Positions 31,651 through 52,300 of a stretch of 64,000 nucleotides of DNA are shown piece by piece. Origin of the DNA: a virus (taxonomy: Duplodnaviria > Heunggongvirae > Uroviricota > Caudoviricetes); IMG/VR virus record IMGVR_UViG_2974636330_000001, positions 21,023-85,022 of that record. One strand, given 5' to 3'. A program made the translations under genes and the position numbers. Position 1 is the first letter of the stretch, and each line of letters opens with the position of its first letter. The notes beneath the pieces were generated by a model, which ran no database searches, was not told the DNA's origin, and was given only the letters and a program-made list of their open reading frames with translations.

Positions 31651-31669
31651 CCACAACTGGAGAAGTAGA

Positions 31670-32467
31670 GTGAACAAGCTGTTGCTGATGGTACTGATGG
31701 TGGTGCTGGCCTTGACCGGCTGTACGATGGTCTCCCCGGACCCGGGTCAGGAGGCTGTCCTGATCGACAAGCCGATCCTGTTCGGCGACGGTGGTGTCCG
31801 TCTGGATGACGTGCGTCCGGCTGGCCTGACCTACACGTGGTGGACCACCGAGAAGGAATACATCGACGTGACCCCGCAGACGGTGCAGGTCCAGTTCGAT
31901 GACTTCTCGTCGTCCGACAATATCCTGCTGGACTTCCAGACGCAGATTCAGTACCGGATCACCGGCTCCGGCGTGCTGTTGGCCAAGTTCGGCAAGGACT
32001 GGTTCAAGAACAACGTCGCCAGCCAGTACGCCGCCATCGTCCGTGATCAGGTCAAGCGTTACGACATGACCAAGATGATGAGCGATCCGAATACGGCCAG
32101 CCAGATCGACACCGAAGTGACCAAGCAAGTGCGTGAACTGCTGGCCGAGCAGAAGATTCCGGTGGAAATCATGAACGTCACGCTGGGCAAGGCCAAGCCG
32201 AACCCGAACGTGCTGGAGCAGATGAACCAGACGGCAGCCCAGCAGCAGCGCGTCAAGACATTGGTCGAAGCGACGAACGCCGAGAACCAGCGAGAGCAGG
32301 AGCAGCTGGCCAAGGCCAAGGCTGACAACGCCTACCGTCAGGCAATGAGCCTGTCCCCGGAAATGTATCTGGCCCGCGAAATCGCCGAGCTGAATGCCGA
32401 AGCCTGCAAGGCCGCGAAGGGTGGCTGCTACATGGTGCCGTCCGGCACGTCGGTTCTCGCAAAATAA
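31670..32467 (+). CDS. lipoprotein with SPFH/band-7-like domain
   Basis: GTG after RBS GGAGAAGTAGA. Signal peptide VNKLLLMVLMVVLALTGC (lipobox LTGC). The body resembles HflK/C-stomatin SPFH domains, with a coiled-coil region QQQRVKTLVEATNAENQREQEQLAKAKA. Confidence 0.45.
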   Translation: MNKLLLMVLMVVLALTGCTMVSPDPGQEAVLIDKPILFGDGGVRLDDVRPAGLTYTWWTTEKEYIDVTPQTVQVQFDDFSSSDNILLDFQTQIQYRITGSGVLLAKFGKDWFKNNVASQYAAIVRDQVKRYDMTKMMSDPNTASQIDTEVTKQVRELLAEQKIPVEIMNVTLGKAKPNPNVLEQMNQTAAQQQRVKTLVEATNAENQREQEQLAKAKADNAYRQAMSLSPEMYLAREIAELNAEACKAAKGGCYMVPSGTSVLAK

Positions 32468-37926: not shown

Positions 37927-38140
37927 GACGCGCTGGAAGTGGAAGTGGTGGTTCAAGTACCGGAAGGCCATCATGCCGAACGACCGGCACTGGTGGGTGA
38001 CCACGAAGAACGGGCACCGCGTCCATCAGTGGTTCTCGATCCACACGTTGGAGAATCAGAAGAAAGACATGCTGATCCTGCAAGTCGTGGTCGGGCCGTG
38101 GATGATCAATCTGGCTGGAGCGTACAAGGTGAAGGCATGA
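37919..38140 (+). CDS. small Trp/Lys-rich hypothetical protein
   Basis: MDKTRWKWKWWFKYRK...; overlaps the upstream gene by 8 nt. Confidence 0.35.
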   Translation: MDKTRWKWKWWFKYRKAIMPNDRHWWVTTKNGHRVHQWFSIHTLENQKKDMLILQVVVGPWMINLAGAYKVKA

Positions 38141-38508
38141 ACCTGATCGAACAGTTGCGCGATGGGCCGGTGTGCCATGCGAAGCGCTGGAGCGGCGACA
38201 CCCATGATGATCTGGGTGGGACCGTCAACGAGAGTGCGACCATCGAGCTGATGAACCGTGCGGCAGACGCGCTGGAAAGTAGGAAGGTGTTCGCGTTCGT
38301 CCACAGTAGCTGTAAGTACGAAGAATCCCCGTACGTCGTCTCCCTGCACACCACGAAGGCAGGAGCATGGCGAGCGATGTACGAACATCGTTACGCGCAT
38401 GAAGTGCTGAACCGCGACTACTACCTGTTGCATGGTGGGAACTACAGTCCGATGCACGCAGGGCTGATGATGATCTGGGCCGTACGCCAGTATGAGGTGA
38501 AGCCATGA
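38138..38508 (+). CDS. hypothetical protein
   Basis: ATGA overlap; 123 aa. Confidence 0.4.
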
Positions 38509-38759
38509 AGCCGCATGAAGTATCGGCACTGTTGGCCCGTATAGATGCAGGGCTGATGCGTGCGATGGACCAGTCTGGTCGGAATGTCATGGTCAAGACC
38601 GAAGACCTGCAAGAGTTGCGTAGGTTGGCTGAGGCCGGGCGGAGTCTGGAGTTCTACCAGACCCGTTGCAATCAGTTGCAGATGGCCATGAACAGCTTCC
38701 GTGATCCGGAGCGGCAGGTCGTGTGCGATATTCTGGCCAATGGAAGTACGAAGCGATGA
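38505..38759 (+). CDS. hypothetical protein
   Basis: 84 aa with overlap coupling. Confidence 0.4.
   Translation: MKPHEVSALLARIDAGLMRAMDQSGRNVMVKTEDLQELRRLAEAGRSLEFYQTRCNQLQMAMNSFRDPERQVVCDILANGSTKR
38667..38680 (+). repeat. TGCAATCAGTTGCA (1-mismatch copy, in CDS)
   Basis: one substitution in right half-site. Confidence 0.6.
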
Positions 38760-38932
38760 ACGAACTGCTGTTGTGCCTGACCGGAGTGACCTTGATCCTG
38801 ACTGCATGGTGGGCAGACACCCGGATGGGCACGAAGTTGTACCGGGTACTGTCGTGGGTGATCGGCACGTTGCTTGTGCTACTTGCCGTTGGCCTGATTG
38901 AACGTATGATCTACTTGTTCACAGCGTTTTAG
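38756..38932 (+). CDS. small membrane protein
   Basis: Two TM helices (LLLCLTGVTLILTAWW, VIGTLLVLLAVGLI). Confidence 0.35.
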   Translation: MNELLLCLTGVTLILTAWWADTRMGTKLYRVLSWVIGTLLVLLAVGLIERMIYLFTAF

Positions 38933-38940
38933 GGGCAGTT

Positions 38941-39123
38941 ATGTTGAATCGTCAAGAACGTCTGAAGTTGGAGCAGCTGATCGAAGCGCACTCGGAGGCG
39001 CAGGTGGCTGAATCGTGGGCCGGGGCAGGTGATCCAGCTGAAGCAGAAGCGGTACGTGCAAGGGCCGAAGCGGCAGAAGCCCAGCTGAAGTTGTACATCG
39101 TAGAGATAACGATCAAGGAGTGA
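38941..39123 (+). CDS. small coiled-coil protein
   Basis: 60-aa ORF. Confidence 0.35.
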   Translation: MLNRQERLKLEQLIEAHSEAQVAESWAGAGDPAEAEAVRARAEAAEAQLKLYIVEITIKE

Positions 39124-39125
39124 GC

Positions 39126-39491
39126 ATGAGCGGTATCAGTGAGATTCACGGGAAGACCCTGTTCCTGCATGTCGGCGCGACCGAAGGTGGTTGCCTCGAT
39201 GTAGGTGCAATCCAGTTGCAAGGCTTCACCCTACTCCCCGACAAAGAAGTGCAGGCCCTGAAAGATGCGGCCAAGCCGGAGAATACGGCGTGGGCAGTCG
39301 TCACGTTGGTGATCGATTATTACCGTCTGGCAGAAGGGCTGCGCAAGGCTGCCGATCCTCATGGTAAGTGGGGCATGAGCCAGAAAGTCCACTGGGATAA
39401 AGTCGCCCAGTTCCGGGAGGCGATGGACAACACCCTGAAGTCCATCAAGGCGCTGGACTACGGTACGTACGAAAGGCTGGTGCGGGAATGA
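39126..39491 (+). CDS. hypothetical protein
   Basis: ATG after AAGGAGTGAGC. Confidence 0.4.
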   Translation: MSGISEIHGKTLFLHVGATEGGCLDVGAIQLQGFTLLPDKEVQALKDAAKPENTAWAVVTLVIDYYRLAEGLRKAADPHGKWGMSQKVHWDKVAQFREAMDNTLKSIKALDYGTYERLVRE

Positions 39492-39955
39492 CCGTGATGA
39501 AGTCGAAGCGGCTGGGCCTGTCCCACTTGCAGGCTGACCTGCTGGCCATGAAGTTGCAGGAAGAAGAACTGCTCGGTGCGGTGCGTCAGGCACTGGGCGT
39601 CAGGAAGTTGCGGCTGCGGCTGGACTACACGAGCCATGTGCCCCAGCTGATGGTCGTCCTGCCTGATGGATATCCGATCCCGTGGCAGGCCATGAACACG
39701 CAGAAGCGTAGGCTGTTCAAGTACGCGACCGATCATGTCGATGCGTCGGCGTTCATCACTGACCTGACTGATCGGCTGGCCAAGCTCGGGGCGCGTATGG
39801 CGCTGGTGTACCACAAAGACCCGAAGACCCAGCGTAGGCTGGTCAAGATGGTAGTGATTTCGGATGACAGCCGTCTGATCAACCTGAGTCTGGTCGGGGT
39901 CTACAAGGGCGGCGCGTGCCTGTACGATGGGTTCAATGCGAAGGAGATGACATGA
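39488..39955 (+). CDS. hypothetical protein
   Basis: 155-aa ORF with ATGA overlap. Confidence 0.45.
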   Translation: MTVMKSKRLGLSHLQADLLAMKLQEEELLGAVRQALGVRKLRLRLDYTSHVPQLMVVLPDGYPIPWQAMNTQKRRLFKYATDHVDASAFITDLTDRLAKLGARMALVYHKDPKTQRRLVKMVVISDDSRLINLSLVGVYKGGACLYDGFNAKEMT

Positions 39956-40227
39956 TCACGATCTTTGGAATGTCGTTCGAGCCGGGCACGTTCGTAATCC
40001 TGTGCCTGATCCTCGGGTGTCTGGCAGGGTATCTGTCGGCCAAGTGCATGAGGCCGGTAGTCGTCATGGTGAAGCACTGTATCCACACGATCCCGAAGGA
40101 AGACGTGGATGCGTACATGGCCAGCCCGGATGGCAAGAAGCTGGTCGCAGCGATTCTGTCAGGTGAAGTGCAGCCTGAGAGCGATCAGGACGTGAATCGG
40201 CAGGGTCCGGGCGGCGTTGAAATGTAA
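39952..40227 (+). CDS. small membrane protein
   Basis: TM segment GTFVILCLILGCLAGYL. Confidence 0.35.
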   Translation: MITIFGMSFEPGTFVILCLILGCLAGYLSAKCMRPVVVMVKHCIHTIPKEDVDAYMASPDGKKLVAAILSGEVQPESDQDVNRQGPGGVEM

Positions 40228-40231
40228 GCCG

Positions 40232-40245
40232 TGCAATTGATTGCA
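40232..40245 (+). repeat. TGCAATTGATTGCA (intergenic, fused to RBS AAGGAG)
   Basis: exact match. Confidence 0.9.
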
Positions 40246-40255
40246 AGGAGATAGC

Positions 40256-40900
40256 ATGGGTGTGTTACTCGCGGTGATCGGGTCCGTAGCGTTCATGCTG
40301 AACCTGATCGTGGTGTTCTGGTGGGGCGTGCCGTTTCTGAGGACGAAGATCGGGAACTGGCGCAAGTCGAGGTACGACAAGAAGATGGCCAAAGTAATCG
40401 GGAATATCAGTGTGGAAGTGGAAGACCCGGCAGTCCTGATGGGGCTGAAGCCGTTGGTGACTCTGGTAGCAGATGAAGCCCTGCCCATCGCTGAGAAGTG
40501 CGTGGGCGTAGAACTGTCCGGCATCTTCGTCATGAAGAACGAGCGTGTCGTGCTGGTGTTCTCGAACGACGAATCGTTCACGATCACGTCGAACATCACG
40601 TGGCCGTCGAACCATCCGTTGTTCAAGGTAGGGTCGCACCTGAAGAACCCGGCCATGGGCGTGCGGGCGTTCGATCATCAAGGCAAGAAGATCAAGCTGG
40701 AGAAGTTCGAAGGGGCGAAGCTGATATCGTTCCAGCGTAAGGGCCACACTGGCGACAAGGTGGAGAGCGGCAAGATGTACAAGCACGAAGCCGAGTGGAT
40801 GATCCTGAAGTTCGACGTGGGCCTGCTCGGGATCGAGTTCTCGGTGAAGCGTACCCCGGGCGAGAACGTCGTGCGGACCTACCTGATCAAGACGGAGTGA
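40256..40900 (+). CDS. membrane-anchored hypothetical protein
   Basis: ATG after AAGGAGATAGC, immediately downstream of a palindrome copy. N-terminal TM (LLAVIGSVAFMLNLIVVFWW). Confidence 0.5.
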   Translation: MGVLLAVIGSVAFMLNLIVVFWWGVPFLRTKIGNWRKSRYDKKMAKVIGNISVEVEDPAVLMGLKPLVTLVADEALPIAEKCVGVELSGIFVMKNERVVLVFSNDESFTITSNITWPSNHPLFKVGSHLKNPAMGVRAFDHQGKKIKLEKFEGAKLISFQRKGHTGDKVESGKMYKHEAEWMILKFDVGLLGIEFSVKRTPGENVVRTYLIKTE

Positions 40901-40906
40901 CGTGCC

Positions 40907-41185
40907 ATGAACCATCTTTGGAACAAGCGTCGTGAGAAGTTGGAACTGGAGCTGGCCCGGGCCGCTGTCGAGCTGATCGGCCATGTCGGTACGTCCGATA
41001 TCCGGCTGCACCTGTCCGAAGGGCACATGATCTGTATCGGGAGTCGTGAGGGCATCGCCCACCTGTTGGATGCGACCCTCGGGGAAGAGCGGATCACCAT
41101 TGGCGTGGAGAAGGAAGAACCGGCTACGATCCAGCCGAGCAAGAAGGCCCAGCTGTCTCTGGTGATCCCGGAGCCGAAGCCGTGA
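40907..41185 (+). CDS. hypothetical protein
   Basis: 92-aa ORF. Confidence 0.4.
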   Translation: MNHLWNKRREKLELELARAAVELIGHVGTSDIRLHLSEGHMICIGSREGIAHLLDATLGEERITIGVEKEEPATIQPSKKAQLSLVIPEPKP

Positions 41186-41421
41186 ATGTAGAGGGCAAGA
41201 TCGCGGAGTCCGTCGCAGCGTACAACGTCGAGTTGAAAGAGCTGACCAAGAAGTTGATCCTCGACGTGAATCAGGCATTGAAAGAGCAGAACCAGAAAGA
41301 AGAATGCCTGAAACTGTTGGAGTTCGACCTCACGATAGACATGATCGCTGTCGAATCGTTCGGCGAGCCGCAGTACATGACCCTGAAGGAGATCGGGTTG
41401 GCCATACGCACCAGAAGGTGA
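41182..41421 (+). CDS. hypothetical protein
   Basis: 79-aa ORF; terminator GGGAGGCTTCGGCCTCCTTTT downstream. Confidence 0.4.
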   Translation: MNVEGKIAESVAAYNVELKELTKKLILDVNQALKEQNQKEECLKLLEFDLTIDMIAVESFGEPQYMTLKEIGLAIRTRR

Positions 41422-41453
41422 ACGGCCCGTTCATACGTTAGGTAGTTCCACGG

Positions 41454-41476
41454 TAGGGAGGCTTCGGCCTCCTTTT
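41454..41476 (+). terminator. rho-independent terminator
   Basis: GGGAGGCTTCGGCCTCCTTTTCG. Confidence 0.55.
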
Positions 41477-41669
41477 CGTATGTAGAAGTGCCTGTTTATG
41501 TGCTGAAAGTGCGTATCGACAAAGTGGTGTGAAGAGAAAAGAATGGCCTTTTAACGTGCCGAAGAGGATAATAGTTCGCATAAGACTTTAGGCTAGGGCC
41601 ACAGATGATCCGGGGACGTGACCATGGGTGGAGTCATGGAAGGACGATCAGAGCGAACCTGCACAGGTT

Positions 41670-41683
41670 TGCAATCAAATGCA
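41670..41683 (+). repeat. TGCAATCAAATGCA (1-mismatch copy, upstream of rhomboid gene RBS)
   Basis: one substitution. Confidence 0.6.
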
Positions 41684-41697
41684 CAGGAGGTAGTGCT

Positions 41698-42225
41698 GTG
41701 AAAGCGATCTGCGTCGGGTTGTTGATGCTCGCCGTGCTGGAGATTCTGGCACCACGTACGCTGAACTGGATGATCCTGTGGCCAGACCGTAGGTTCGAGC
41801 CGTGGCAACCACTGACGTACTGGATGGTGCATGTTGGCCTGCTCCATGTGCTGACGAACGTCGGCATCGTGTGGGTGATGGCGCGCGATCTGGAGTGGCG
41901 GTACAGCCTGTTGGAAATCGGAGGCTGTTTCATTGTGGCGTGTGTCGTAGGCGGCTGCCTCCATGCGCTGGTGTCGAGTACCCCGATTGCGGGTGCGTCG
42001 GCAGGAGTATTCGCCCTGATGGTGATGTACATCATGAGCTTCCCGTACAAGAAGCTGGGATGGTTCACGTTGGGCAAGTTGCTGATCCCACTGTTTGTCC
42101 TGCAAAGCGTGATGGGGGTGGTCTGGACCGGCCAGATTCCCCACCTTGTAGGCATGGTAGTGGGCTTGTGCTGGATGATGTTTTGTGGCAAGGCCGTTCG
42201 TTCGGAGCGACCGACCCTGATATAG
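41698..42225 (+). CDS. rhomboid-family intramembrane serine protease
   Basis: GTG after AGGAGG. About 6 TM helices in 175 aa. TM2 has H-x3-N (HVLTN), TM4 has GASAGVFALM (G-x-S-x-G, catalytic Ser region), TM6 has IPHLVGMVVGL (catalytic His, HxxGxxxG). Confidence 0.55.
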   Translation: MKAICVGLLMLAVLEILAPRTLNWMILWPDRRFEPWQPLTYWMVHVGLLHVLTNVGIVWVMARDLEWRYSLLEIGGCFIVACVVGGCLHALVSSTPIAGASAGVFALMVMYIMSFPYKKLGWFTLGKLLIPLFVLQSVMGVVWTGQIPHLVGMVVGLCWMMFCGKAVRSERPTLI

Positions 42226-42283
42226 TCAAGGTTCTGAGGGCATTCCGGCCTGAATTGTCAACGAAAGATGAAGGAGAACGACG

Positions 42284-42877
42284 ATGCAACTGTCCCTGTT
42301 CCAGAATGCGTTCCTGATCCGTAACAAGGAAGGCTACGGCTACCACAAAGACCTCCCGAAGCCGCTGACCTACGAAGGCGACACCAAGTCCATCGAGTTC
42401 CAGCTGGCCGAGCTGGGCTATGAAGTGGCCTACGTCACCAAGGGTGCGCCGAAGGCCGACAAGAAGGACAAGGCCGACGCCGAGAAGAACGGCGAATACC
42501 ACAGCCCGGACGTGTCGGACTGGAATCCGGAAGCGCCGAGCCTGAGCGGCAAGTCCGGCAAGGGCTTCGAGACCGAGGGCGAGAACAAGAAGCTGACCCC
42601 GGAAGCGAACGCAGCCCAGATCAAGGCCCAGAAGGGCGGCGATGATGCCAAGGGCTTCCCGCGTGATTCGGATTCGAAGGACTTGCTGTCGAACGACCCG
42701 TGGCATCTGGTCGCGGTGTATGACACCGACGACAAGGGTCCGACCGCCATGTTCGCCCGCAAGAAGGTCCAGAAGGCTGACACCCCGGAAGAGAATGAAG
42801 TGGTCGCCGAAAAGCGCAAGGAGCGCATGGAAGTGACTGCCGACGACCGGATCAGCGGACGCGAAGGCATCCAGTGA
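42284..42877 (+). CDS. hypothetical low-complexity (Lys/Asp/Glu-rich) protein
   Basis: 197 aa; RBS GAAGGAGAACG. Confidence 0.5.
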   Translation: MQLSLFQNAFLIRNKEGYGYHKDLPKPLTYEGDTKSIEFQLAELGYEVAYVTKGAPKADKKDKADAEKNGEYHSPDVSDWNPEAPSLSGKSGKGFETEGENKKLTPEANAAQIKAQKGGDDAKGFPRDSDSKDLLSNDPWHLVAVYDTDDKGPTAMFARKKVQKADTPEENEVVAEKRKERMEVTADDRISGREGIQ

Positions 42878-43134
42878 TGAAAGCCCTGTTCAAGAATCCG
42901 GTGTTCGTGGTGGCTTTGATCGCCTCGGTGGTGTATCTGGTGTTCGGCCTGTCGATCTTCTTCGGGCCGCACAGTGGGTTGCTCAGTTGGATTCTGGGCG
43001 GGGTGATCGCGCTGGTGATCGCTGCGTTGTGGGTTGCCGTGTACAAGGGAGCGACGACCTACTCGACTGCGAAAGACGCCGTGGATCAGTCATGGGATGA
43101 CCTGCGGGATCGCATCGATAAGGGCGAAAAATAG
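42874..43134 (+). CDS. small membrane protein
   Basis: Two TM segments. Confidence 0.4.
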   Translation: MMKALFKNPVFVVALIASVVYLVFGLSIFFGPHSGLLSWILGGVIALVIAALWVAVYKGATTYSTAKDAVDQSWDDLRDRIDKGEK

Positions 43135-43209
43135 CGGGCCTTGGGATAAGAACCCTGCTAAAATAAGGGTCGGGAGATTCGTCTCTCGGCCCTTTCTAAT
43201 GGAGTAAGT

Positions 43210-43848
43210 ATGAAGAGTCTCGTGATCGTGCCGCACATGGACGATGAAGTCCTGAGTTGCGGGGGCCTGATCCAGAACCGGACTGAAGTGCGCGTGCTGG
43301 TGGTGTACGGCAGGCACTACCCCGAGCTGTCCGGACAAGAACTGTGGGATAAGCAGGCGGAGCAGATACAGCACTTCAATGCGGCGTGCGGAATGCTGAA
43401 AGTCGAATCGGTAGTGTTCCTGAACATGCCGGAGGGGGAGCCGCATCAGGTGGGCTACTACCGGGTGTTGGAGCAGCTGGAGTCCCGACTGAAGTCCTTC
43501 CAGCCTGAAGAAGTCGTGTTCCCCGGGGAGTTCGACCAGAACCAAGACCACGTGATGCTGAACCACGTTGGCCGCATCCTGATGCGTCCCGGAAACCTCG
43601 GAAACGTGAAGCGCGTGTTGAAGTCGATTGCCCACGATAGTATCCTGACGCAGCCGACCTATTTCGTGCCGATGAACAGCAATCAGATGAAGAACAAGCT
43701 GAATGCCATGCGTTGCTACGAAGACGAAGTGCGCGAAAACCCCCATCCCCGCAGTCTCGACAACATCGAGGCGCTGGCCCGTGTCCACGGTAGCAAGTGC
43801 GGCCACGAGTTCGCCGAAGGCTACATCACCCACATGATCAAGGAATAA
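43210..43848 (+). CDS. LmbE/PIG-L family N-acetyl-sugar deacetylase
   Basis: Leader CTAATGGAGTAAGTATG. N-terminal VIVPHMDDEVLSCGG (the PIG-L HxDDE motif) and a second FDQNQDHVMLNH motif. Confidence 0.6.
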   Translation: MKSLVIVPHMDDEVLSCGGLIQNRTEVRVLVVYGRHYPELSGQELWDKQAEQIQHFNAACGMLKVESVVFLNMPEGEPHQVGYYRVLEQLESRLKSFQPEEVVFPGEFDQNQDHVMLNHVGRILMRPGNLGNVKRVLKSIAHDSILTQPTYFVPMNSNQMKNKLNAMRCYEDEVRENPHPRSLDNIEALARVHGSKCGHEFAEGYITHMIKE

Positions 43849-43852
43849 CAAG

Positions 43853-44794
43853 ATGCGCGTTGCAATCACTGGCGGCACCGGATTCATCGGTACGAACCTG
43901 ACTAAGTACCTGCAAGAGAACGAGCCGAACACCGAAATCGTACTGGTTGATCTGGTCGCTCCGTGCATCGAACTCGGGCCGAAGACGAAGTTCGTCTATG
44001 CCGATATCCGGAACCTGAAGTCGCTGTTGAACGCCTTCGACGGCTGCGATGAAGTCTACAATCTGGCAGGCATCCTCGGCACGTCCGAACTGCTGTCGAT
44101 CAGTTCGCTGGCCTGCGAAACGAATATCGTCGGCGCGTGCAACGTCTTCGACGCCTGCATCGAGAAGGGCGTGAAGCGGGTGTACAACGTGGCGAAGCCG
44201 CACTTCGAAGGGTACGCGGAGAACGCCTACACCCTGACGAAGCACTCGGGCGAACTGCTCGGCCTGATGTACCGCAAGACGTACGGCCTCGACGTGGCAA
44301 CCGTCCGCTGGCTCAACGCAGTCGGCCCGTACCAGCACCTGTATCCGGTGCGTAAGTTCCTGCCGATGATGATCCTGCAAGCCTTCTATGGCTACGACCT
44401 CGAAGTCTACGGCAGCGGCAAGCAGACCATCGACCCCATCGACACCCGCGATCTGGCCCGCTTCACCCTGCACGCCTGCCGCGAGCTGGGCCAGCACCCG
44501 GACGTGGTTGACCTCGGCTCGGGCCGTGCAATCAGTTGCAACGACGCGGCGGAGCTGATCCTGAAGCTGGTGAAGGAAGCTGGCATCAAGACCGACAGCA
44601 AGGTGATCCACGTACCGATGCGTCCGGGCGAGGCTGACGATATCAACCTGTGCGCCGACACGACCTACTGGGATTCGGTGGGCATGAAGACCGAGTTCTC
44701 GTTCGAAGATTCGATCCGCGACACGATCCAGTACATGCGGAACCTCCCGGCGTACCACATGCAGAACGCCCTCCATTTCTACGGGCTGACCTGA
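43853..44794 (+). CDS. NAD-dependent nucleotide-sugar epimerase/dehydratase (extended SDR)
   Basis: MRVAITGGTGFIGTNL Rossmann motif; catalytic YTLTK. Confidence 0.7.
   Translation: MRVAITGGTGFIGTNLTKYLQENEPNTEIVLVDLVAPCIELGPKTKFVYADIRNLKSLLNAFDGCDEVYNLAGILGTSELLSISSLACETNIVGACNVFDACIEKGVKRVYNVAKPHFEGYAENAYTLTKHSGELLGLMYRKTYGLDVATVRWLNAVGPYQHLYPVRKFLPMMILQAFYGYDLEVYGSGKQTIDPIDTRDLARFTLHACRELGQHPDVVDLGSGRAISCNDAAELILKLVKEAGIKTDSKVIHVPMRPGEADDINLCADTTYWDSVGMKTEFSFEDSIRDTIQYMRNLPAYHMQNALHFYGLT
44527..44540 (+). repeat. TGCAATCAGTTGCA (1-mismatch copy, in epimerase CDS)
   Basis: one substitution. Confidence 0.6.
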
Positions 44795-45840
44795 TGGATA
44801 TCGTGACCTCCCTGAAGAACCCCCAGCGGCAGGGGCGCATCCATGACCTGATCACTCAGGTGATGAACAGTGGGAAGTACGCCGAAGGCCCGAAGCTGAA
44901 GGAGTTCGAGCGCATCCTGTCCGAACAGCACCGCATGTACTTCGCCACGGCGACGAACAGTTGCGGCTCGGCCCTGTTCGCGGTGTTCTCGTACCTGAAG
45001 TCTAAGGGCGCGGAGACGGTGGCGATCCAGAACAACACGTTCTACGCCACGGCGGCGATGGCGCTGGCAGCTGGCTTGAAGGTAGCTCTGGTGGACAACC
45101 GCAAGGACTGCCCGAGCATGTCGGTTGACAGCCTGCGGACCCTGCACAGCCAGATCAAGATCGACGCGGTGGTGCTGACCCATGTCGGTGGGTATCTGGC
45201 CAAGGACTACAGTTCGATTGCGGAGTTCTGCGAGTTCGAAGCGATCCCGCTGATCGAAGACGGGGCGCATTCGTACGGTGTCCGTGAGCGCGACCTGTTC
45301 GCCGGAGCGTTGGGCGTTGCCACGACCCTGAGCTTCTACCCGACCAAGAGCATCCCGATTGGTGAGGGCGGCGCGGTGATCACCCGCGATCCGGAACTGG
45401 ACCAGTACGTGCGTCGGTTCATCAGTTACGGCAAGCACGTCGAAGACGGCGTGATGAAGTACGACGGGATCGGCTTCAACTTCCGTATGTCTGAAGTGCA
45501 GGCAGCGGTCGGCATTGTCCAGCTGGAGAACGTGGACCAGATCGTCGGAGGCCGTGACCGTGATGCCCGTGTGCTGGCTCAGTTCATGGCTCCCCTCCTG
45601 AGCGGACCGACGAACTGGTACAAGTACATCGTGCCGAAGGCAGTCGGCTTCAAGACTGTCGGAGCGGTGTATACCGAAACCGACCAGATCACCGGGACTG
45701 GGTTGGAAGTAGCGACCCCGGTGTCGTTGGACAACAGCAAGAACTGGGCCGCCAGTCACATGTGTCTGCCGATTGGCGAAGGCATGTATGACGGGCTTTC
45801 GATGGAAGAAGTCTCCAACTACCTGAAGGGTGAAGCGTGA
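44794..45840 (+). CDS. DegT/DnrJ/EryC1/StrS-family PLP-dependent sugar aminotransferase
   Basis: TLSFYPTKSIPIGEGGAVIT (the PLP-lysine motif SFxxxKxxxxGEGG). Fold-type I layout. TGATG overlap. Confidence 0.75.
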   Translation: MDIVTSLKNPQRQGRIHDLITQVMNSGKYAEGPKLKEFERILSEQHRMYFATATNSCGSALFAVFSYLKSKGAETVAIQNNTFYATAAMALAAGLKVALVDNRKDCPSMSVDSLRTLHSQIKIDAVVLTHVGGYLAKDYSSIAEFCEFEAIPLIEDGAHSYGVRERDLFAGALGVATTLSFYPTKSIPIGEGGAVITRDPELDQYVRRFISYGKHVEDGVMKYDGIGFNFRMSEVQAAVGIVQLENVDQIVGGRDRDARVLAQFMAPLLSGPTNWYKYIVPKAVGFKTVGAVYTETDQITGTGLEVATPVSLDNSKNWAASHMCLPIGEGMYDGLSMEEVSNYLKGEA

Positions 45841-46517
45841 AAGTTCGTCAGACCGATGTGAGCGAAGCCGATATCAAGTCGGCCAAGATTTTCTTCGATG
45901 CGGTGCTGGGGTTCTTCGACCTGAGCAACGCGACCGTGCTGGATGCGTTCGCGCGTAACGGCCAGCTGACCGTCTCGAACTACCACGACCATGTGGGCGC
46001 GGTGGAGTGCTGGGAACTGGGGCCGGAGCATGAAGAAGCCCTGCGCAAGTACACCGACGAAGTGAAGATCGGCGACAGTTACAGTCTGCTGGATGGCATG
46101 GGTGCCAGCCTGTACGACATGATCGTGATCGACACCCCGCAGGGCCTGCACAAGGACAACCACGGAGCGGTGATGTGCGAGCATTTCGACTTCCTACCGC
46201 ACGCCATTTCGTTGCTGACCGAGGGAGGCATCGTCGTCCTGTACTGCAACAAGGCCCCGTACGACAAGGACAAGGAAGGCAGTCAGGGGTACGACGAGTA
46301 CGAAGAGTACGACTTCAAGAACTGGATGGCAGCCCGGCAGAACTTCTACAACGTCAGCAATGGCCGCGAAGTCGCAGAAGAAGACATGCTGATCGCGTAC
46401 CGTGATCTGATCGCAGACGAAGGCCGCGAGCTGGGCCGTGTCGTCATGATCCCGTGCTTCTCGGACGTACCGAACAAGGAACCGTACGCCTTCCGTCTGG
46501 CTCTCGAAATCCTGTAA
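45837..46517 (+). CDS. putative class-I SAM-dependent methyltransferase-like protein
   Basis: VLDAFARNG (motif-I-like) and DMIVIDTPQG (DPPY-like). Weak match; function uncertain. Confidence 0.3.
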   Translation: MKVRQTDVSEADIKSAKIFFDAVLGFFDLSNATVLDAFARNGQLTVSNYHDHVGAVECWELGPEHEEALRKYTDEVKIGDSYSLLDGMGASLYDMIVIDTPQGLHKDNHGAVMCEHFDFLPHAISLLTEGGIVVLYCNKAPYDKDKEGSQGYDEYEEYDFKNWMAARQNFYNVSNGREVAEEDMLIAYRDLIADEGRELGRVVMIPCFSDVPNKEPYAFRLALEIL

Positions 46518-46540
46518 CGGGCCGACAAGAAGTTCCACCC

Positions 46541-46572
46541 AAGGGCTGGTAGTGAAGTGCCAGCCCTTTTTC
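46541..46572 (+). terminator. rho-independent terminator after the sugar-cluster methyltransferase-like gene
   Basis: AGGGCTGGTAGTGAAGTGCCAGCCCTTTTTCA. Confidence 0.55.
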
Positions 46573-46577
46573 ATGAG

Positions 46578-46773
46578 GAAGATAAAGATGAGCAAGCTGG
46601 CCGAACGTTACAAAGAAGCCCTGAAGGAAGACCCCCGTTTCATCGACCCGGCAGCCGAAGCGGCAGAGCTGGAGCTGACCGTGGAAATGATCCGACAGCA
46701 TGTCAAGTCGCGCCTGTACAACGGCGACAACTACGACGTGATCCAGAAGATTCTCGGGGAGGATTTGCTATGA
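46578..46773 (+). CDS. small hypothetical protein
   Basis: ATG after AGGAAGATAAAG, downstream of the terminator AGGGCTGG...CCAGCCCTTTTT. Confidence 0.35.
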
Positions 46774-47192
46774 ACTGGAGTTGGGCCAAGGTGATGTGGC
46801 TGGGCCTCGTCATTGTGCTGTGCAGCCTCCTTCCGGAGAGCCTGCTCCCACGCCCACTGGGAGTGCTGATCGTCCTTGCAGTGCTTCTGGTGGTCCTGAT
46901 GATCGACCCCACGGCCATGCGCTCGGACTACTCAGGGCATCGGTGGATGTTGCGGGACCACTTCGAAGTCATGTTGGCCAGACGTGTGGTGGAGTACGAC
47001 GTACTGATCCAGCGCGGACTGCCGACACCAGAGCTTTCGGGGCTGAAATGTGAGATCGAGACGGCTACGAAGTACCTGTTCCGTCTGTTCCCACGGCGCT
47101 ACGTAGGGTGGACAGAGCTGGACCGCGACTGGGCAGATCGCGTACTATTGTCGGCAGACAAGACCCTTCTGGCGTACGTGGACCAACAATGA
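46770..47192 (+). CDS. membrane protein
   Basis: Two TM helices at the N-terminus. Confidence 0.4.
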   Translation: MNWSWAKVMWLGLVIVLCSLLPESLLPRPLGVLIVLAVLLVVLMIDPTAMRSDYSGHRWMLRDHFEVMLARRVVEYDVLIQRGLPTPELSGLKCEIETATKYLFRLFPRRYVGWTELDRDWADRVLLSADKTLLAYVDQQ

Positions 47193-48643
47193 AAATCCTG
47201 TTCGACGTGGTGTACACGAACCGACCGAGCGTCTGCTCGACCTCCTATTTGGTGTGGGAGCTGATCGAACGGTTGATGGAGTGGCGTGACGACATTTTCT
47301 TCTATGTCACGTACCCGCCGAACAAGATCAACGATGATGATCAGGAGTTTCTGGCACGGCACAGTGATCGGGTCCGTCTGCTGCCGGTGACCTCTGAACC
47401 GACCGACCGCGTGAGCGAACTGTTCTCGATCCCGCGCGAGCTGAAGAAGTATTTCGTACCGTGGAACAGCGAATGCTGGGACTATGACGTGGTGGTGAGC
47501 AGCCGCGTCCCGATGCTCGGAGCGTTCTGGCCCCACTTCGCACGGTACAGCGGCAGGAAGATGCCCGGCACCCGGGCCGTGTTCGGGCTGGAAGAAATGC
47601 CAGTGCTGCCGTTCCGAAAGACCGTGCCGTGGCACGAGCATCTGCATCTGCAATCAATTGCAAGTTACCTGCATTCGACCGGCATCCTGATCAACAACCA
47701 GTGGACGCTCACCGAGCTGAAGAAGGTGGGGCGTGATCTGCTGTCCCCGGCGCAGCTGAAGAAGCTGATGACCAAGGTCCACGAAGTGGTGCCGGTGCGC
47801 CTGACTCGCCTGAACCTGAAGAAAGACCTGACCGTAGGGGCGGAGTTCAACGTCACGTTCGTGGGCCGAGTGACCAGTACCCGAAACGTGGCGCAGGTGC
47901 TGGACCTGTTCCGTAAGCAGTTCGCGTACCCGATTGGGAAGACCGACATGCGGTTCCTGATCAGCACGAACAGCCTGTCGATGGGCGGCACCGACTACGG
48001 TGAGATGGACTTCATCGACATGCAGATGAACAACCGGAAGGAGTTCTACGAGTTCCTCGGCAAGGCACATGTCGCAGTCAACCTGACCCACGTAGAGGAT
48101 TTCAGCCTGTCCACGTGGGAGACCCTGCTCAACGGCGTGCCGGTGATCGTGTTGGATGAAGCATGGAACAGTTTCCTCGGGCCGGACTACCCGTTCCGGG
48201 TGAAGTCGCAGGTCGAGGCGTACGCCATGTTGAACGCCATGGTGAAAGACTATCCGGCCATGTACCAGAAGTTCGTGGACTGGGAAGCGTCGTACTGGGC
48301 CGCGTATGTGGACAGCGACAAGAACGTCACGACCTCGGAGAAGCTGATCGAGCTGATCGACAACTACGAGACGTGGCGCGATGGCCACCTGTCCGGAGAC
48401 GAACAGGGCAAGAGCTACAAGCTGGAGCTGGACGAGTTCCTGAAGGACGATCCGCAGGTGATCGACCTGACGGCCTACCTGAAGGACAAGAACAACGGAA
48501 CGGCCTTCCACGACGGCAAGTCGGAGTTCTTCTCCCTGCCGCTGGCGAAGGTGCCGAACAACCACCTGATCAAAGTGCTGGCTGGCCTGCGCGGCTACCG
48601 CGATACGAACCAAGTCGGCGTGATGGTGAAGGAGCAGCCGTGA
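47189..48643 (+). CDS. glycosyltransferase, GT-B fold (GT4-like)
   Basis: C-terminal EDFSLSTWETLLNGVPVIV matches the GT4 E-x7-E donor-binding motif. 484 aa. Confidence 0.65.
   Translation: MKILFDVVYTNRPSVCSTSYLVWELIERLMEWRDDIFFYVTYPPNKINDDDQEFLARHSDRVRLLPVTSEPTDRVSELFSIPRELKKYFVPWNSECWDYDVVVSSRVPMLGAFWPHFARYSGRKMPGTRAVFGLEEMPVLPFRKTVPWHEHLHLQSIASYLHSTGILINNQWTLTELKKVGRDLLSPAQLKKLMTKVHEVVPVRLTRLNLKKDLTVGAEFNVTFVGRVTSTRNVAQVLDLFRKQFAYPIGKTDMRFLISTNSLSMGGTDYGEMDFIDMQMNNRKEFYEFLGKAHVAVNLTHVEDFSLSTWETLLNGVPVIVLDEAWNSFLGPDYPFRVKSQVEAYAMLNAMVKDYPAMYQKFVDWEASYWAAYVDSDKNVTTSEKLIELIDNYETWRDGHLSGDEQGKSYKLELDEFLKDDPQVIDLTAYLKDKNNGTAFHDGKSEFFSLPLAKVPNNHLIKVLAGLRGYRDTNQVGVMVKEQP
47649..47662 (+). repeat. 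TGCAATCAATTGCA (in glycosyltransferase, LQSIA)
   Basis: exact match. Confidence 0.9.
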
Positions 48644-48951
48644 GCGACTACCTGATCAAGTCCATGATTCTGGCCGCAATCGCAGTAGTGATGGCGTTCC
48701 TGTTGTGGGGCCTGATCCGGGGCGTTCGGGAGAGTTTGCGTGCCTTGTGGTGGGTGCGTTATCAGCGTAGGATGATGGAACTGGGGGCGTGGCTCGACCG
48801 ATTCGAGACCCTGCAACCCGTGATTGTTTCGGAGGGGCGCAGGCTGGTAGCGGTGGAAGTAGCCGATGCAGATGCGGACCTGAGTTTGGAAAACTTCCTG
48901 AAGAAATATGGAGTGAACGAACGTGAGTTCTGCACCACTTACGGCCATTGA
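48640..48951 (+). CDS. membrane protein
   Basis: GTG overlapping the upstream stop; TM segment MILAAIAVVMAFLLWGLI. Confidence 0.35.
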   Translation: MSDYLIKSMILAAIAVVMAFLLWGLIRGVRESLRALWWVRYQRRMMELGAWLDRFETLQPVIVSEGRRLVAVEVADADADLSLENFLKKYGVNEREFCTTYGH

Positions 48952-49777
48952 AAAGACAGCGGCGCTTGGCCGAGTGATGCTGCCGGTCAGCAGTCTGTTC
49001 TCGAACGAGAAGAACCCGAACAAGATGAGCGATAAGGAGTTCAATCTCCTGTGCGACAACATCGAACGGGTGGGGATTACTGATCCGATCTTCGTGCGCG
49101 AACTGGAGGATGGGAAGTACCGTATCATCGGCGGCCACCACCGGTTCGAAGTGGCGAAGCTACTCGACTTCGTGGAAGTGCCCTGTACGGTGATCACCGA
49201 CCCGAACTTCTCGGAAGACGAAGAGTCGTTCCAAGTCATGCGCCACAATATGATCCGGGGTAAGCTCGACCCGGAGAAGTTCCAGCAGCTGTTTGCAGGG
49301 CTGAAGGAGCAGTACGCCGAAGACGTGATCGCGGAATCGTTCGGCTTCGCTGACGAGAAAGAGTTTGCCAAGGTCATGGCGCAGATGAAGAAGAAGCTGC
49401 CCAAGGACATGCAGGCAGCGTTCGAAGAAGCATCGAAAGAAATCAAGACCATCGACGGCCTGTCGAAGCTGTTGAATCGCCTGTTCTCGGAGCATGGCGA
49501 CACCCTGCCCTACGGCTACATGCTGATTGACTTCGGACAGAAGGACAGCATCTGGCTGCGTATGTCGAACGACACGCGCAAGGCGCTGCTGGAAGTGGGC
49601 AACCTGTGCAAGGCCCACGGACGGACCATGGATGATCTGCTGGGCGGCGTCGTGCAATCAATTGCAGCAGGCAACCACCCCGAACTGATGGCCCAGCTGG
49701 TGGCCAAGAGCAAGGAAGTGGTGATCCCCGAAGGGTTCAAGGAGTTGCCGACCGAGAATAATCTGGCGGTGGTCTGA
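48923..49777 (+). CDS. ParB-like nuclease domain protein
   Basis: KYRIIGGHHRFEVAKLL matches the ParB/Srx motif. Adjacent to the terminase genes, as often seen in phages. Confidence 0.55.
   Translation: MSSAPLTAIEKTAALGRVMLPVSSLFSNEKNPNKMSDKEFNLLCDNIERVGITDPIFVRELEDGKYRIIGGHHRFEVAKLLDFVEVPCTVITDPNFSEDEESFQVMRHNMIRGKLDPEKFQQLFAGLKEQYAEDVIAESFGFADEKEFAKVMAQMKKKLPKDMQAAFEEASKEIKTIDGLSKLLNRLFSEHGDTLPYGYMLIDFGQKDSIWLRMSNDTRKALLEVGNLCKAHGRTMDDLLGGVVQSIAAGNHPELMAQLVAKSKEVVIPEGFKELPTENNLAVV
49653..49666 (+). repeat. TGCAATCAATTGCA (in ParB-like gene, VQSIA)
   Basis: exact match. Confidence 0.9.
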
Positions 49778-50424
49778 TGGCCGCCGTCAAGTACGCCCGA
49801 ATCTTCGCCCTCGGGGAAGAGAAAGTAACCGTCATCAACAACATGTTGGCGGAGGGCAACAGCGCACAGGTAGTGGCTCGCCATATTCAAGGAGTGTGGG
49901 GTGAGTTCAAGGACGTAGCAGAGAAGACCCTGATGCAGCAGTTGTTGCGCTACCGGTCCGAACACTGCGAAAGTCCACAGGTACAACAGGAGCTGGCAGT
50001 AGACCCCAAAACCGAGCGGTTCAAGAAGGTCGAAGGCAAGCTGGATGTGCTGACCGAGATGATCGAACTGGCAGGGATGCAGAAGAAGCGTCTGAGAACG
50101 TTCCTCGACCGAGAGGAAACCCTGAAGATGCCGATCAAGGGGGTGTCGGAAGACATTTCCCTGTTGAACAACATGTACAAGGACATTCAGAAGGTGCAGT
50201 TCGACCTCGGTTTGGACCAGTACAATGGCCCCCTGATTCAGGGTGGCAAGCAAACCCAGTCCCGTACAGTCCACCCGGACGGCACGGTAGTCGAAGAAAG
50301 TACGACGGAAGTGATTTCAAGCACGCTGGAAGTGCTGGAGCAGTTCCGAATGAAGAAGCAGCAGCCAGCCATTGAGGGAGAGGCAAGTGTCGTCAGCGTT
50401 GATCCAGCAGGTGAACCAACTTAG
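49777..50424 (+). CDS. putative terminase small subunit
   Basis: Position directly upstream of TerL. N-terminal HTH-like KVTVINNMLAEGNSAQVVARHIQ. ATGA overlap. Confidence 0.35.
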   Translation: MAAVKYARIFALGEEKVTVINNMLAEGNSAQVVARHIQGVWGEFKDVAEKTLMQQLLRYRSEHCESPQVQQELAVDPKTERFKKVEGKLDVLTEMIELAGMQKKRLRTFLDREETLKMPIKGVSEDISLLNNMYKDIQKVQFDLGLDQYNGPLIQGGKQTQSRTVHPDGTVVEESTTEVISSTLEVLEQFRMKKQQPAIEGEASVVSVDPAGEPT

Positions 50425-52300
50425 TACAGAAATGTACGCCTACCTGCTGGAGAACCTCGGCCCACAGGACGGCAAGAAAGTATGGTTCCAAGGTCAGAAG
50501 ATTCACGACCTGCACGAACGTGCGAAGTTCTATGCGATGGTGGCGCAGGATATCGAGCTGATCCTGCGGGGAGAGCGTGCGCTCAATCTGGAGAACGAAG
50601 AGAAGTACAAGTGGCAACCGGTGGGAGTGCAGGAGTTCGTTGAGTCGCCCAACTACATGGATCGGCGCGGTGAGGTGTACCCGGCTGTCATGCAGGAGTT
50701 GGTCAACATCAACAGCGGCCAGTACCAAGAACTGGTGGCCACGGGCGGCATCGGCTCGGCCAAGACCACGATTGCCTTGTACACGATTGCGTATCAGGTG
50801 TACCTGATGAGCTGCCTGCGTAACCCGCACAGGTTGTTCGGACTGGACACGGCGTCGGAGTTGCTGATCATCTTCCAGTCGTTGAACGCGGCGATTGCGA
50901 AGGACAGTTTCAGCCGCTTCACGTCGATGGTGGAGAACAGCCCGTATTTCCAGAACCACTTCATGTTCAACAAGGAACTGAAGTCGCGTCTGGTGTTCCC
51001 GAACCGTATCGAAGTACGACCGATCTCTGGTCAGGAGTCCGGCGCGATTGGTCAGAACGTCATCGGCGGTTTGATCGATGAGCTGAATTACATGTCCATC
51101 GTAGAGAAGTCCAAGCAGTCGGTGGACAAGGGCACGTACGATCAGGCAGTGGCGCTGTACAACTCCATCGCCCGACGCCGAAAGTCTCGATTCATGAAGA
51201 ACGGCAAGATGCCGGGCATGTTGTGTCTGGTGTCCTCGAAACGTTACCCGGGACAGTTCACGGATATCAAGGAAGAAGAGGCCCGGAACGACCCGACGAT
51301 CTACATCTATGACAAGCGCGTGTGGGACGTGAAGCCGGAGGGTACGTTCTCGGGTGAGACGTTCTTCGTATTCGTGGGTGACGAAACGCGCAAGCCGAAG
51401 GTGCTGGAAGAGGAAGAGCAGGTCGAGGACGAAGATCGTCATCTGGTGATGGCCATCCCGGTGGAGTTCCGCGACGACTTCGACGGCCCCGGCGCGGATA
51501 TCATCAATGCCCTGCGCGAAATCGCAGGCGTCAGTACGCTGGCCCGGCATCCGTACTTCTCGAACACGAACGCCGTCGCCGCTGGTATGGGGACGCACGA
51601 AAGCATCTTCAGTCGGGAAGAAATCGACTTCGTGCAGACGAAGGCTGCGGTGTATCCGAAGCTGTTCTACAAGCCAGAACTGCCCCGATTCGCTCACATC
51701 GACTTGGCAATCTCGGGAGACAGTGCGGGTCTGGCCATCGGAACGGTGACTGGATTCGCGTCCATGAAGGAACTGGGCTACGGCGACAACGCGAACGAGA
51801 TGATGCCGATCATCCACTATGACGGGATGCTCGAAATCATGCCGCCGAAGGGTGGCGAAATCCTGTTCTGGAAGATCAGAGAGATTTTGGTCAAGCTGCG
51901 CGAGATGGGACTGAACATTCGGTGGGTGACCTTCGATAGCTTCCAGTCCACCGACAGCATCCAGTTGCTGCGAGCGCAGGGGTTTGTCACCGGCCAGATT
52001 TCCATGGATACGTCGGCCAGGCCATACGACACGTTGAAGAGCGCGTTCTACTCGGGCCGGGTCAAGGCACCGAAGCATAAGCGGGCACAAAAGGAGCTTG
52101 TCTCGCTGGAAAAAGACAGTAAAACTGGTAAAATCGATCACCCAGCCTCCGGATCGAAGGACGTAAGCGATGCGATGGCGGGTGTGGCATACGGCCTGAC
52201 CAACCGTCGAGAGATTTGGTCGATGTACGGCATCCCCATGGTGACTGTCCCGCAATCAATTGCAGTTGCGATGGACAAGTCTGAGCAGAAAATCGTCTAA
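50372..52300 (+). CDS. terL: terminase large subunit
   Basis: ATPase Walker A VATGGIGSAKTT and Walker B GLIDELNYM. C-terminal RNaseH-like nuclease (HIDLAISGDSAGLAIG...). Start ambiguous; in-frame candidates at 50372, 50411 (GTG) and 50432 (ATG). Confidence 0.8.
   Translation: MRERQVSSALIQQVNQLSTEMYAYLLENLGPQDGKKVWFQGQKIHDLHERAKFYAMVAQDIELILRGERALNLENEEKYKWQPVGVQEFVESPNYMDRRGEVYPAVMQELVNINSGQYQELVATGGIGSAKTTIALYTIAYQVYLMSCLRNPHRLFGLDTASELLIIFQSLNAAIAKDSFSRFTSMVENSPYFQNHFMFNKELKSRLVFPNRIEVRPISGQESGAIGQNVIGGLIDELNYMSIVEKSKQSVDKGTYDQAVALYNSIARRRKSRFMKNGKMPGMLCLVSSKRYPGQFTDIKEEEARNDPTIYIYDKRVWDVKPEGTFSGETFFVFVGDETRKPKVLEEEEQVEDEDRHLVMAIPVEFRDDFDGPGADIINALREIAGVSTLARHPYFSNTNAVAAGMGTHESIFSREEIDFVQTKAAVYPKLFYKPELPRFAHIDLAISGDSAGLAIGTVTGFASMKELGYGDNANEMMPIIHYDGMLEIMPPKGGEILFWKIREILVKLREMGLNIRWVTFDSFQSTDSIQLLRAQGFVTGQISMDTSARPYDTLKSAFYSGRVKAPKHKRAQKELVSLEKDSKTGKIDHPASGSKDVSDAMAGVAYGLTNRREIWSMYGIPMVTVPQSIAVAMDKSEQKIV
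52251..52264 (+). repeat. CGCAATCAATTGCA (in terL 3' end, PQSIA)
   Basis: first base C instead of T. Confidence 0.8.

Follow-up and report, generated by a model that had tools for sequence, protein, structure and literature searches.

A predicted rhomboid intramembrane protease of Stenotrophomonas phage DLP5, apparently an old accessory gene of its phage lineage

Why would a tailed phage carry a rhomboid intramembrane serine protease, and is such a gene a recent acquisition from a host? The question is raised by a gene at positions 41698..42225 (+ strand; 175 aa, GTG start) of a 64,000-nucleotide stretch of Caudoviricetes DNA (IMG/VR record IMGVR_UViG_2974636330_000001, positions 21,023 to 85,022), the whole of which we refer to as the window. 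By megablast, window positions 38000-46000 match Stenotrophomonas phage vB_SmaS_DLP_5 (DLP5; MG189906.1 / NC_042082.1) over their full length with 100% identity, and a coordinate in the DLP5 record equals the window coordinate plus 21022. The same search identified phage Summit (90% identity) and DLP3 (82.5% identity), and DLP5, Summit and DLP3 are the three Delepquintavirus genomes compared below. The gene is DLP05_096 in the DLP5 record, with the product 'rhomboid membrane protein', and its homologs are labelled 'rhomboid protease' in the GenBank record of Summit and 'rhomboid membrane protein' in that of DLP3. It is mentioned in both the DLP5 paper and the DLP3 paper, and is counted among six moron genes in the former. 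As the exact sequence is annotated as a rhomboid and features in both papers, the rhomboid identity that formed the core claim of the preliminary description of this locus was already public, annotated and published, and our finding mainly re-discovers an existing annotation. A full-text literature search turned up no functional work on phage rhomboids. In practical terms, the present analysis revises the start codon, argues against the label 'recent moron' and maps the regulatory spacer upstream of the gene, while the remaining interest lies in a phage lineage that retains an apparently active intramembrane protease.

The protein has a single Pfam match, to Rhomboid (PF01694; E 3.8e-18, 66.5 bits vs a cut-off of 22.6), which aligns residues 33-163 with profile positions 2-140 of 143; no non-protease family was matched. 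The preliminary description had placed the three rhomboid hallmarks in six transmembrane (TM) helices, with H-x3-N in TM2, GASAGVFALM in TM4 and HLVGMVVGL in TM6, and this arrangement is borne out by both hydropathy and structure prediction. Six hydrophobic segments are present (approximately residues 3-19, 41-62, 69-92, 97-115, 120-143, and 148-166), and the motifs lie at residues 50-54 (HVLTN), 99-108 (GASAGVFALM), and 149-157 (HLVGMVVGL). An AlphaFold2 model, computed from a 43-sequence alignment, has a mean predicted local distance difference test score (pLDDT) of 93.3 and a predicted template modeling score (pTM) of 0.88. Its helices span residues 2-17, 48-68, 71-92, 101-114, 125-142, and 144-163, with two additional short helices in L1, and its TM4 is short, beginning at Ser101. 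When the model was compared with the PDB by Foldseek, the top 33 matches were all GlpG structures (best TM-score 0.71, probability 1.0), and the iRhom and Derlin structures were much weaker matches than GlpG.

A sequence search of the PDB found Haemophilus influenzae GlpG (E 6.8e-8), Escherichia coli GlpG and iRhoms. In these alignments GASAG falls on GLSGV of the H. influenzae and E. coli GlpG proteins, PHLVGMVVGL on AHISGLIVGL / AHIAGLAVGL, and HVGLLHVLTN on HLSNLHILFN / HISLMHILFN. In E. coli GlpG numbering, the equivalences are S101=S201, H149=H254, H50/N54=H150/N154, G99=G199, and G152/G156=G257/G261; the correspondence of the Ser/His dyad to S201/H254, on which the assignment had been made to hinge, is upheld by the PDB alignments, the AlphaFold2 model and the Foldseek matches alike. 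Residues H50, N54, S101, H149, G99, and G152 are invariant in the 43-sequence alignment, which includes phage relatives at 26-39% identity. Based on these data the DLP5 gene product is predicted to be a rhomboid-family intramembrane serine protease (MEROPS S54) of minimal six-helix form, consisting of the core without extra domains, in which Ser101 (at the start of TM4) and His149 (TM6) would form the catalytic dyad and His50 and Asn54 (TM2) the oxyanion hole. With GlpG from E. coli and from H. influenzae (PDB 2IC8 and 2NR9, among others) it shares the six-TM core and the aligned catalytic residues, but it differs from them in lacking the N-terminal cytoplasmic domain, in being only ~20% identical, in being phage-encoded and at several individual positions (WQ for WR in L1, GASA for GLSG, F105 for Y205, and P-H for A-H). 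It scored 25.3 and 23.4 bits against the GlpG equivalog models TIGR04239 and NF008155 of NCBIfam (cut-offs 250 and 335, respectively) and 16.4 bits against the NCBIfam rhombosortase model TIGR03902 (cut-off 84), and so falls outside all three.

Relative to Summit, the rhomboid gene has 9/4/38 substitutions at the first, second and third codon positions, amounting to 39 synonymous and 9 non-synonymous codon changes, and it evolves under purifying selection. Since the catalytic residues are invariant down to 26% identity and synonymous changes predominate to this extent, we infer that the gene product is probably a catalytically active protease.

The start of the gene requires correction in one public record. 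In GenBank the DLP5 gene starts at ATG 41605 and encodes 206 aa, the extension of 31 codons (41605..41697, + strand; record positions 62627-62719) being open in frame in DLP5, Summit, and DLP3, whereas in the records of DLP3 and Summit the gene is annotated with the 175-aa start. The 93-nt extension differs from DLP3 at 9/9/9 sites by codon position, with 13 non-synonymous and 3 synonymous codon changes, compared with 37/16/53 differences in the core open reading frame (ORF), and its portion from 41605 to 41655 is only 57% identical to DLP3. The more distant relatives have N-termini that begin directly at TM1 (MKWLC.., MKWIA.., MWWFV..), and a ribosome-binding site AGGAGG (41685..41690, + strand), located 7 nt 5' of the GTG, is found in an AGGAGG-N7-GTG layout that is invariant in all three Delepquintavirus genomes. 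We rejected the 206-aa ORF owing to the lack of codon-position bias in its extension and to the relatives beginning at TM1. Taken together, the unbiased extension, its low identity, the N-termini of relatives and the invariant layout make GTG 41698 the likely true start, as the preliminary description had assumed; the GenBank start at ATG 41605 is probably wrong and the 93 nt that follow it are most likely a non-coding leader.

Is the gene a recent arrival in the phage? Its guanine plus cytosine (GC) content of 58.1% and its GC at third codon positions (GC3) of 77.3% are at the phage gene means of 58.3% and 77.0% (z ~0), and an index of the codon adaptation type places it at the 14th percentile, which is no outlier. 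A phmmer search of 1.84 billion representative proteins returned 463 proteins with E<=0.001 and six with E<=1e-10. These six, P0001 (94% identical) and P0003-P0007 (161-170 aa, 32-42% identity), scored 81-372 bits, while all others scored <=56 bits, and no cellular homolog exceeded ~35% identity. A word-indexed homolog search with the single protein returned two close relatives only. The subfamily was absent from scans of IMG/VR viral contigs, whether by single protein or by clade alignment, and searches of JGI metagenome contigs and 185,579 species-representative genomes retrieved no subfamily member, only generic rhomboids at 25-32% identity. From these homology searches, the subfamily appears so far to be found only in phages.

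The relatives also share a genomic setting. P0003 (contig L008), P0004 (L009), and P0007 (L011-L013) are encoded on phage-like contigs whose genes are ordered as in DLP5, while the contigs of P0005 and P0006 are ~1 kb in length and have no gene context. The common order is a YunG-like gene (in some), the rhomboid, gp097 (in some), a gp098-like protein with two TM segments, a PIG-L deacetylase, an NAD-dependent epimerase/dehydratase, a DegT aminotransferase, a methyltransferase or WbqC, a 484-aa GT4-like protein, ParB_N, gp108, and TerL. The contigs of P0003, P0004, and P0007 have 42-56% GC vs 58% for DLP5. The rhomboid thus occupies the same syntenic position in four lineages in which its protein identity is 31-39% in alignments, or 35-42% in local BLAST/phmmer matches. 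Between L008 and DLP5 the rhomboids are 41% identical, compared with 82% for WcaG, 74% for TerL, 70% for the glycosyltransferase, 68% for ParB, and 30% for gp098. The rhomboid is present in L008, L009, L011, and the three Delepquintavirus genomes, and its presence varies among syntenic relatives. The preliminary description had suggested that the spacer and gene might be a horizontally acquired module. A recent transfer is not supported by these comparisons: with GC and GC3 at the phage mean and cellular relatives only ~22-35% identical, there is no sign of it, and the shared synteny likewise stands against it. The gene instead appears to be a long-standing accessory gene of DLP5-like phages that evolves fast, and not a recent host-derived import.

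One result seemed to point to a specific cellular source. In a clade-profile search, the best cellular matches were rhomboids of Xanthomonadaceae and Lysobacterales, the host's own order. These proteins (190-230 aa, mostly PF01694 + PF08551; e.g., P0162 of Stenotrophomonas sp. SY1) share the L1 sequence 'PWQ..TY..H' with DLP5, but they are 35-50 residues longer than the DLP5 rhomboid and only 22-30% identical to it in the 43-sequence alignment, or 25-36% in local BLASTP matches with 50-97% query coverage. However, in the single-sequence search the Xanthomonadaceae rhomboids scored 45 bits, no better than unrelated rhomboids at 56 bits, and we therefore rejected a Xanthomonadaceae origin, as these scores lend no support to a host origin of the gene. 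The profile ranking was probably pulled toward these proteins by P0009, a rhomboid of another phage that is described next.

Rhomboids are rare in phages, as the preliminary description had supposed. When the DLP5 protein, P0009, and a Stenotrophomonas rhomboid were used as tblastn queries against 50,697 phage records, ~11 records proved to contain rhomboid-like genes: those of the three Delepquintaviruses and of Ralstonia phage YO382_2, two megaphage records of ~640 kb, one from a Staphylococcus phage, and a few fecal fragments. A viral structure library held ~8 rhomboid folds, including those of giant viruses. In PHROGs, one unannotated family matches cellular-type rhomboids, and the DLP5 protein had no match (E 0.42). 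The 163-aa P0009 is encoded between a PIF1-type helicase and an integrase (e.g., L004 10001-10492) in an unrelated temperate phage (L004-L007; ~54 kb, 64% GC) that was recovered in several metagenome and sequencing-run assemblies. As P0009 scores 56 bits against the DLP5 rhomboid, no closer than cellular rhomboids do, it probably represents an independent acquisition of a rhomboid by a phage. The same is probably the case for the other viral rhomboids (YO382_2, megaphages, Staphylococcus phage SA 1306 Kay, metagenomic Caudoviricetes, giant viruses), which have the same fold and are virus-encoded but differ from the DLP5 rhomboid in subfamily and gene context.

The 276-bp spacer between the upstream stop codon (TGA, 41419-41421) and the rhomboid start codon (spacer 41422-41697) has a GC content of 50.0% vs 58.0% for the window, and only 1.3% of 276-bp windows are equally low, in agreement with the lower GC content noted in the preliminary description. 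That description had also reported a strong terminator, and one is present at 41450..41479 (+ strand), where an intrinsic terminator of the upstream unit is formed by a stem (41456-41462 / 41467-41473; GGGAGGC / GCCTCC(T)) with a TTCG loop (UUCG in the RNA), followed by TTTT. Its fold has a dG of -19 kcal/mol (z = -3.0), none of 200 shuffled sequences was as stable, and its core is 100% conserved in DLP5, Summit, and DLP3, although it was not listed by a simple consensus scanner. The terminator lies within a conserved non-coding block (41422..41604, + strand) that is 84% identical to DLP3, compared with 71-73% for the three upstream genes. After the block there is a variable stretch, and identity is 88-95% from 41656 to 41697. 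The block also contains a candidate sigma-70-like promoter (TGGCCT-17-GATAAT, 41544..41572, + strand), which has an A-rich stretch upstream and both hexamers invariant in the three phages, and an overlapping candidate (TCGACA-17-AAGAAT, 41516-41544, + strand) that was listed by the scanner but has a -35 hexamer that Summit does not preserve. More distant relatives have no such spacer, their rhomboid gene abutting or overlapping its upstream neighbor; the spacer is therefore a regulatory insertion specific to Delepquintavirus. The conserved terminator and conserved non-coding block support the proposal that the spacer marks a regulatory boundary; promoter function and the extent of the operon are predicted.

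Other elements of the spacer were examined with differing outcomes. The preliminary description had listed several short repeats containing GTGC, and this tetranucleotide is indeed enriched (5 copies vs 1.3 expected; 0.4% of windows reach 5), but only 2/5 copies are conserved in the sister phages; hence the repeats are probably due to chance and we rejected them as a functional element. A 47-aa minus-strand ORF (41438-41581), open in the three phages, was also rejected as coding, since its differences show no bias by codon position (6/6/7 and 11/6/9). A small inverted repeat or hairpin with 9-bp arms, GCGAACCTG-CA-CAGGTTTGC (41653..41672, + strand), was found by an inverted-repeat search; in DLP3 it has one compensatory change from A-T to G-C and one change from C-G to T-G. 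The only spacer elements that recur across the window are a 14-bp motif, discussed below, and generic GGCTTCGGCC hairpin cores. A search of Rfam with the spacer and gene gave no match, apart from one sub-threshold chance hit inside the coding sequence. At the upstream edge, a palindrome (GAACGG-C-CCGTTC, 41420-41432) overlaps the stop codon of gp095; Summit and DLP3 retain its outer arms but vary in the bases at its center.

The 14-bp motif is a quasi-palindrome, TGCAAT-CA-ATTGCA (TGCAATCAATTGCA), of which the central CA is not self-complementary. In the window it has 44 strand-matches with up to two mismatches, representing ~26 distinct sites, 17 of them without a mismatch, compared with 0.45 expected from shuffled sequences. 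One copy, TGCAATCAAATGCA (41670..41683, + strand), ends one base before the start of the ribosome-binding site at 41685. Thus, of the earlier statement that a one-mismatch copy of a 14-bp palindrome immediately precedes the ribosome-binding site, the single mismatch and the position (one base away) stand, and the symmetry is only partial. DLP3 retains the site, as does Summit, where the single mismatch is a different one. It is a probable operator for a dimeric DNA-binding protein. Viewed as a whole, the motif looks like a set of dispersed binding sites comparable to the KorB or ParB sites of plasmids. DLP5 encodes two ParB-domain proteins, and it is described as a plasmid prophage (DLP5 paper). 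Other sites are at 5139-5152, 7112-7125, 26661-26674, 29626-29639, 40232-40245, and 57462-57475; the sites occur in both orientations, about one third are in the scarce intergenic DNA, and four end 10-15 nt 5' of a start codon (those of gp034, gp093, the rhomboid, and gp122).

Two genes directly downstream are relevant to the function of the rhomboid. The first, gp097 (42284..42877, + strand), encodes a conserved soluble charged protein that matches phrog_1372 (E 2e-31) and has no Pfam match; it is probably co-transcribed with the rhomboid. Homologs with 57-59% identity are found after the rhomboid in L009 and also in L023, which has no rhomboid. The second, gp098 (42877..43134, + strand), encodes a protein of 85 aa that has two TM segments and ends in a charged C-terminal tail; it follows the rhomboid in most relatives. 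It has a weak match to a holin family (phrog_297, E 0.0015), and homologs were found in L008, L011, L023, and L024. In a set of 5.8 billion proteins the gp098 family comprises seven clusters, and those members with enough flanking sequence are in DLP5-like contigs. Neither the rhomboid nor its neighbors matched any PADLOC defense model.

Which protein might the rhomboid cut? The explanation toward which we lean is that a minimal, active rhomboid, encoded by an old gene of the phage lineage, cuts a membrane protein. Six-TM rhomboids have both ends in the cytoplasm and an active site toward the periplasmic leaflet, and they cut TM segments of N-out/C-in orientation. The DLP5 protein would adopt this topology in the host inner membrane, exposing its active site to the periplasmic side, an arrangement that agrees with its Lys/Arg-rich C-tail and with its Lys-Lys loop between TM4 and TM5. 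Its substrates would be one membrane protein or a few, cut within the TM segment. The gene appears as the first after the conserved intrinsic terminator, behind a leader with candidate promoters and an operator-like motif, and we infer that it probably opens a transcription unit running into gp097, gp098, and the sugar-nucleotide enzyme cassette. The most likely target would be a host inner-membrane protein that is cut to the advantage of the phage, although we regard this part of the explanation as evenly balanced, and the receptor, defense sensor, or secretion component named in the preliminary description are speculation. Several points weigh against the explanation as a whole. The L1 motif reads W36-Q37 where WR is typical, proline precedes the catalytic histidine in place of alanine or glycine, and the serine motif is GASA in place of GxSG; mutation of the WR arginine reduces the activity of YqgP and GlpG (2025 rhomboid review, PMC12615303). 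Contig L023 retains gp097, gp098, and the whole cassette with no rhomboid at that position, from which it follows that the rhomboid is dispensable for the role of the cassette. In addition, the promoter is a candidate at the level of consensus only, and no evidence pointed to a particular host substrate. Regarding the first of these points, the WR motif is carried by ~80% of rhomboids and is frequent, not universal (PMC12615303). Moreover, all members of the phage clade have Q37, as do the cellular rhomboids aligned with them, several of which have sources named as Xanthomonadaceae or other Lysobacterales.

The same substitutions (WQ for WR, P-H for A/G-H), together with the weaker matches of the model to iRhom and Derlin structures, would be expected if the protein were a catalytically dead rhomboid fold, serving as a Derlin/iRhom-like scaffold or a membrane-thinning factor. 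We consider this highly improbable, as Ser101, His149, His50, Asn54, and Gly99 are invariant across the phage clade and its cellular relatives, the structural matches to GlpG are much stronger, and iRhoms and Derlins lack the catalytic serine. Nor do we find it probable that the gene is a recent host-derived 'moron', expressed alone from a plasmid prophage and altering the host membrane or its virulence, although this would rank above a dead fold. Its inclusion among the six moron genes of the DLP5 paper, the terminator and candidate promoters directly upstream, its absence from L023, and the Xanthomonadaceae/Lysobacterales rhomboids at the head of the cellular profile matches are all compatible with such an origin. 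Against these are the GC and GC3 values at the phage mean, the single-sequence scores, the retention of one syntenic position across four lineages of 42-58% GC at 31-39% protein identity, and the finding of no + strand terminator-like site downstream in the stretch scanned to 42700. A stronger candidate, though still an unlikely one in our estimation, is that the rhomboid cleaves membrane proteins of the phage itself (gp098, gp104, gp106, or the lysis proteins gp030/gp031/gp033), thereby maturing or inactivating them and timing an event at the envelope. A phage substrate is suggested by the conserved adjacency to gp098, a two-TM protein with a weak holin match: a gp098 homolog directly follows the rhomboid in L008 and L011-L013, and follows gp097 in the DLP5 group. 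Several other small TM proteins are encoded in the same gene run, so that with gp098 (2 TM) there are also gp104 (2 TM) and gp106 (1 TM). However, the holin match is weak, the rhomboid and gp098 are separable both ways (L023 has gp097 and gp098 without the rhomboid, and L009 the rhomboid and gp097 without gp098), which weakens the idea of an obligate rhomboid-gp098 pairing, and a recognizable lysis cassette is located ~35 kb away (5210-7090). Because the rhomboid and gp098 occur apart and the lysis cassette lies elsewhere, we favor a host target over a phage target. A further reading, which we put forward tentatively and consider less likely than not, is that a phage-only rhomboid subfamily, vertically inherited across hosts of very different GC, cuts one membrane protein at a defined time; the target could be a host inner-membrane protein on which competing phages or a defense system depend, or else the adjacent holin-like two-TM protein.

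There are cellular precedents for the favored explanation, an active rhomboid cutting a membrane protein. The cleavage of TatA by AarA is a bacterial example. YqgP-MgtE/FtsH and the quality control of orphan membrane proteins by GlpG/Rhom7 provide further precedents for an inner-membrane rhomboid of bacteria that activates or removes a membrane protein by cutting a single TM segment (PMC7231995, PMC7232013). The DLP5 rhomboid is without the extra domains of YqgP, and the likeness proposed here to AarA, YqgP, GlpG, and Rhom7 is one of mechanism. Cells are known to use intramembrane proteolysis for regulation, but we found no described role for it in the phage biology literature; the words phage, virus, and viral are absent from the 2025 review of the rhomboid superfamily (PMC12615303). 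A phage lineage that has kept an apparently active rhomboid across wide host divergence probably uses it on the host envelope, and identifying what it cuts could uncover a new way of achieving host takeover, superinfection exclusion, or counter-defense. If a phage-only rhomboid subfamily does cut one membrane protein at a defined time, it would be the first virus-encoded intramembrane protease with a defined function in bacteria. As DLP5-like phages are considered for therapy of S. maltophilia, labels that mark a gene as a possible virulence factor also matter for safety.

Several other features of the window were noted in the course of this work. The cassette downstream of gp098 (43210-52300) encodes the PIG-L deacetylase, the epimerase/dehydratase, the DegT aminotransferase, a methyltransferase, the 484-aa GT4-like protein, and small TM proteins. 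It is found in L008, L009, L011, and L023 at 47-82% identity, beside ParB_N, gp108, and TerL, in phages of 42-58% GC, and could modify DNA or the cell envelope. The DNA of DLP5 is reported to be heavily modified, being cut by only 4 of 36 restriction enzymes (DLP5 paper). A protein of the SPFH/Band_7 family is encoded at 31598-32467, ~9 kb upstream of the rhomboid, and also in L008 (4631-5461), a relative of 42% GC. Mitochondrial SPFH scaffolds partner with rhomboids and AAA proteases, and by analogy this protein is a possible membrane-scaffold partner for the rhomboid. The probable lysis cassette at 5210-7090 is composed of a 4-TM protein, a 1-TM protein with a weak DUF2514 match (spanin-like), a GH108 endolysin with PG_binding_3, and a 2-TM protein, and is preceded by the copy of the 14-bp motif at 5139. 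The published description of DLP5 counts four tRNAs (DLP5 paper). ARAGORN identified a fifth at 29248-29321, just upstream of the cluster of tRNA-Glu, Gly, Tyr, and Ser, which has a CTA anticodon, is labelled Pyl and is a potential amber suppressor.

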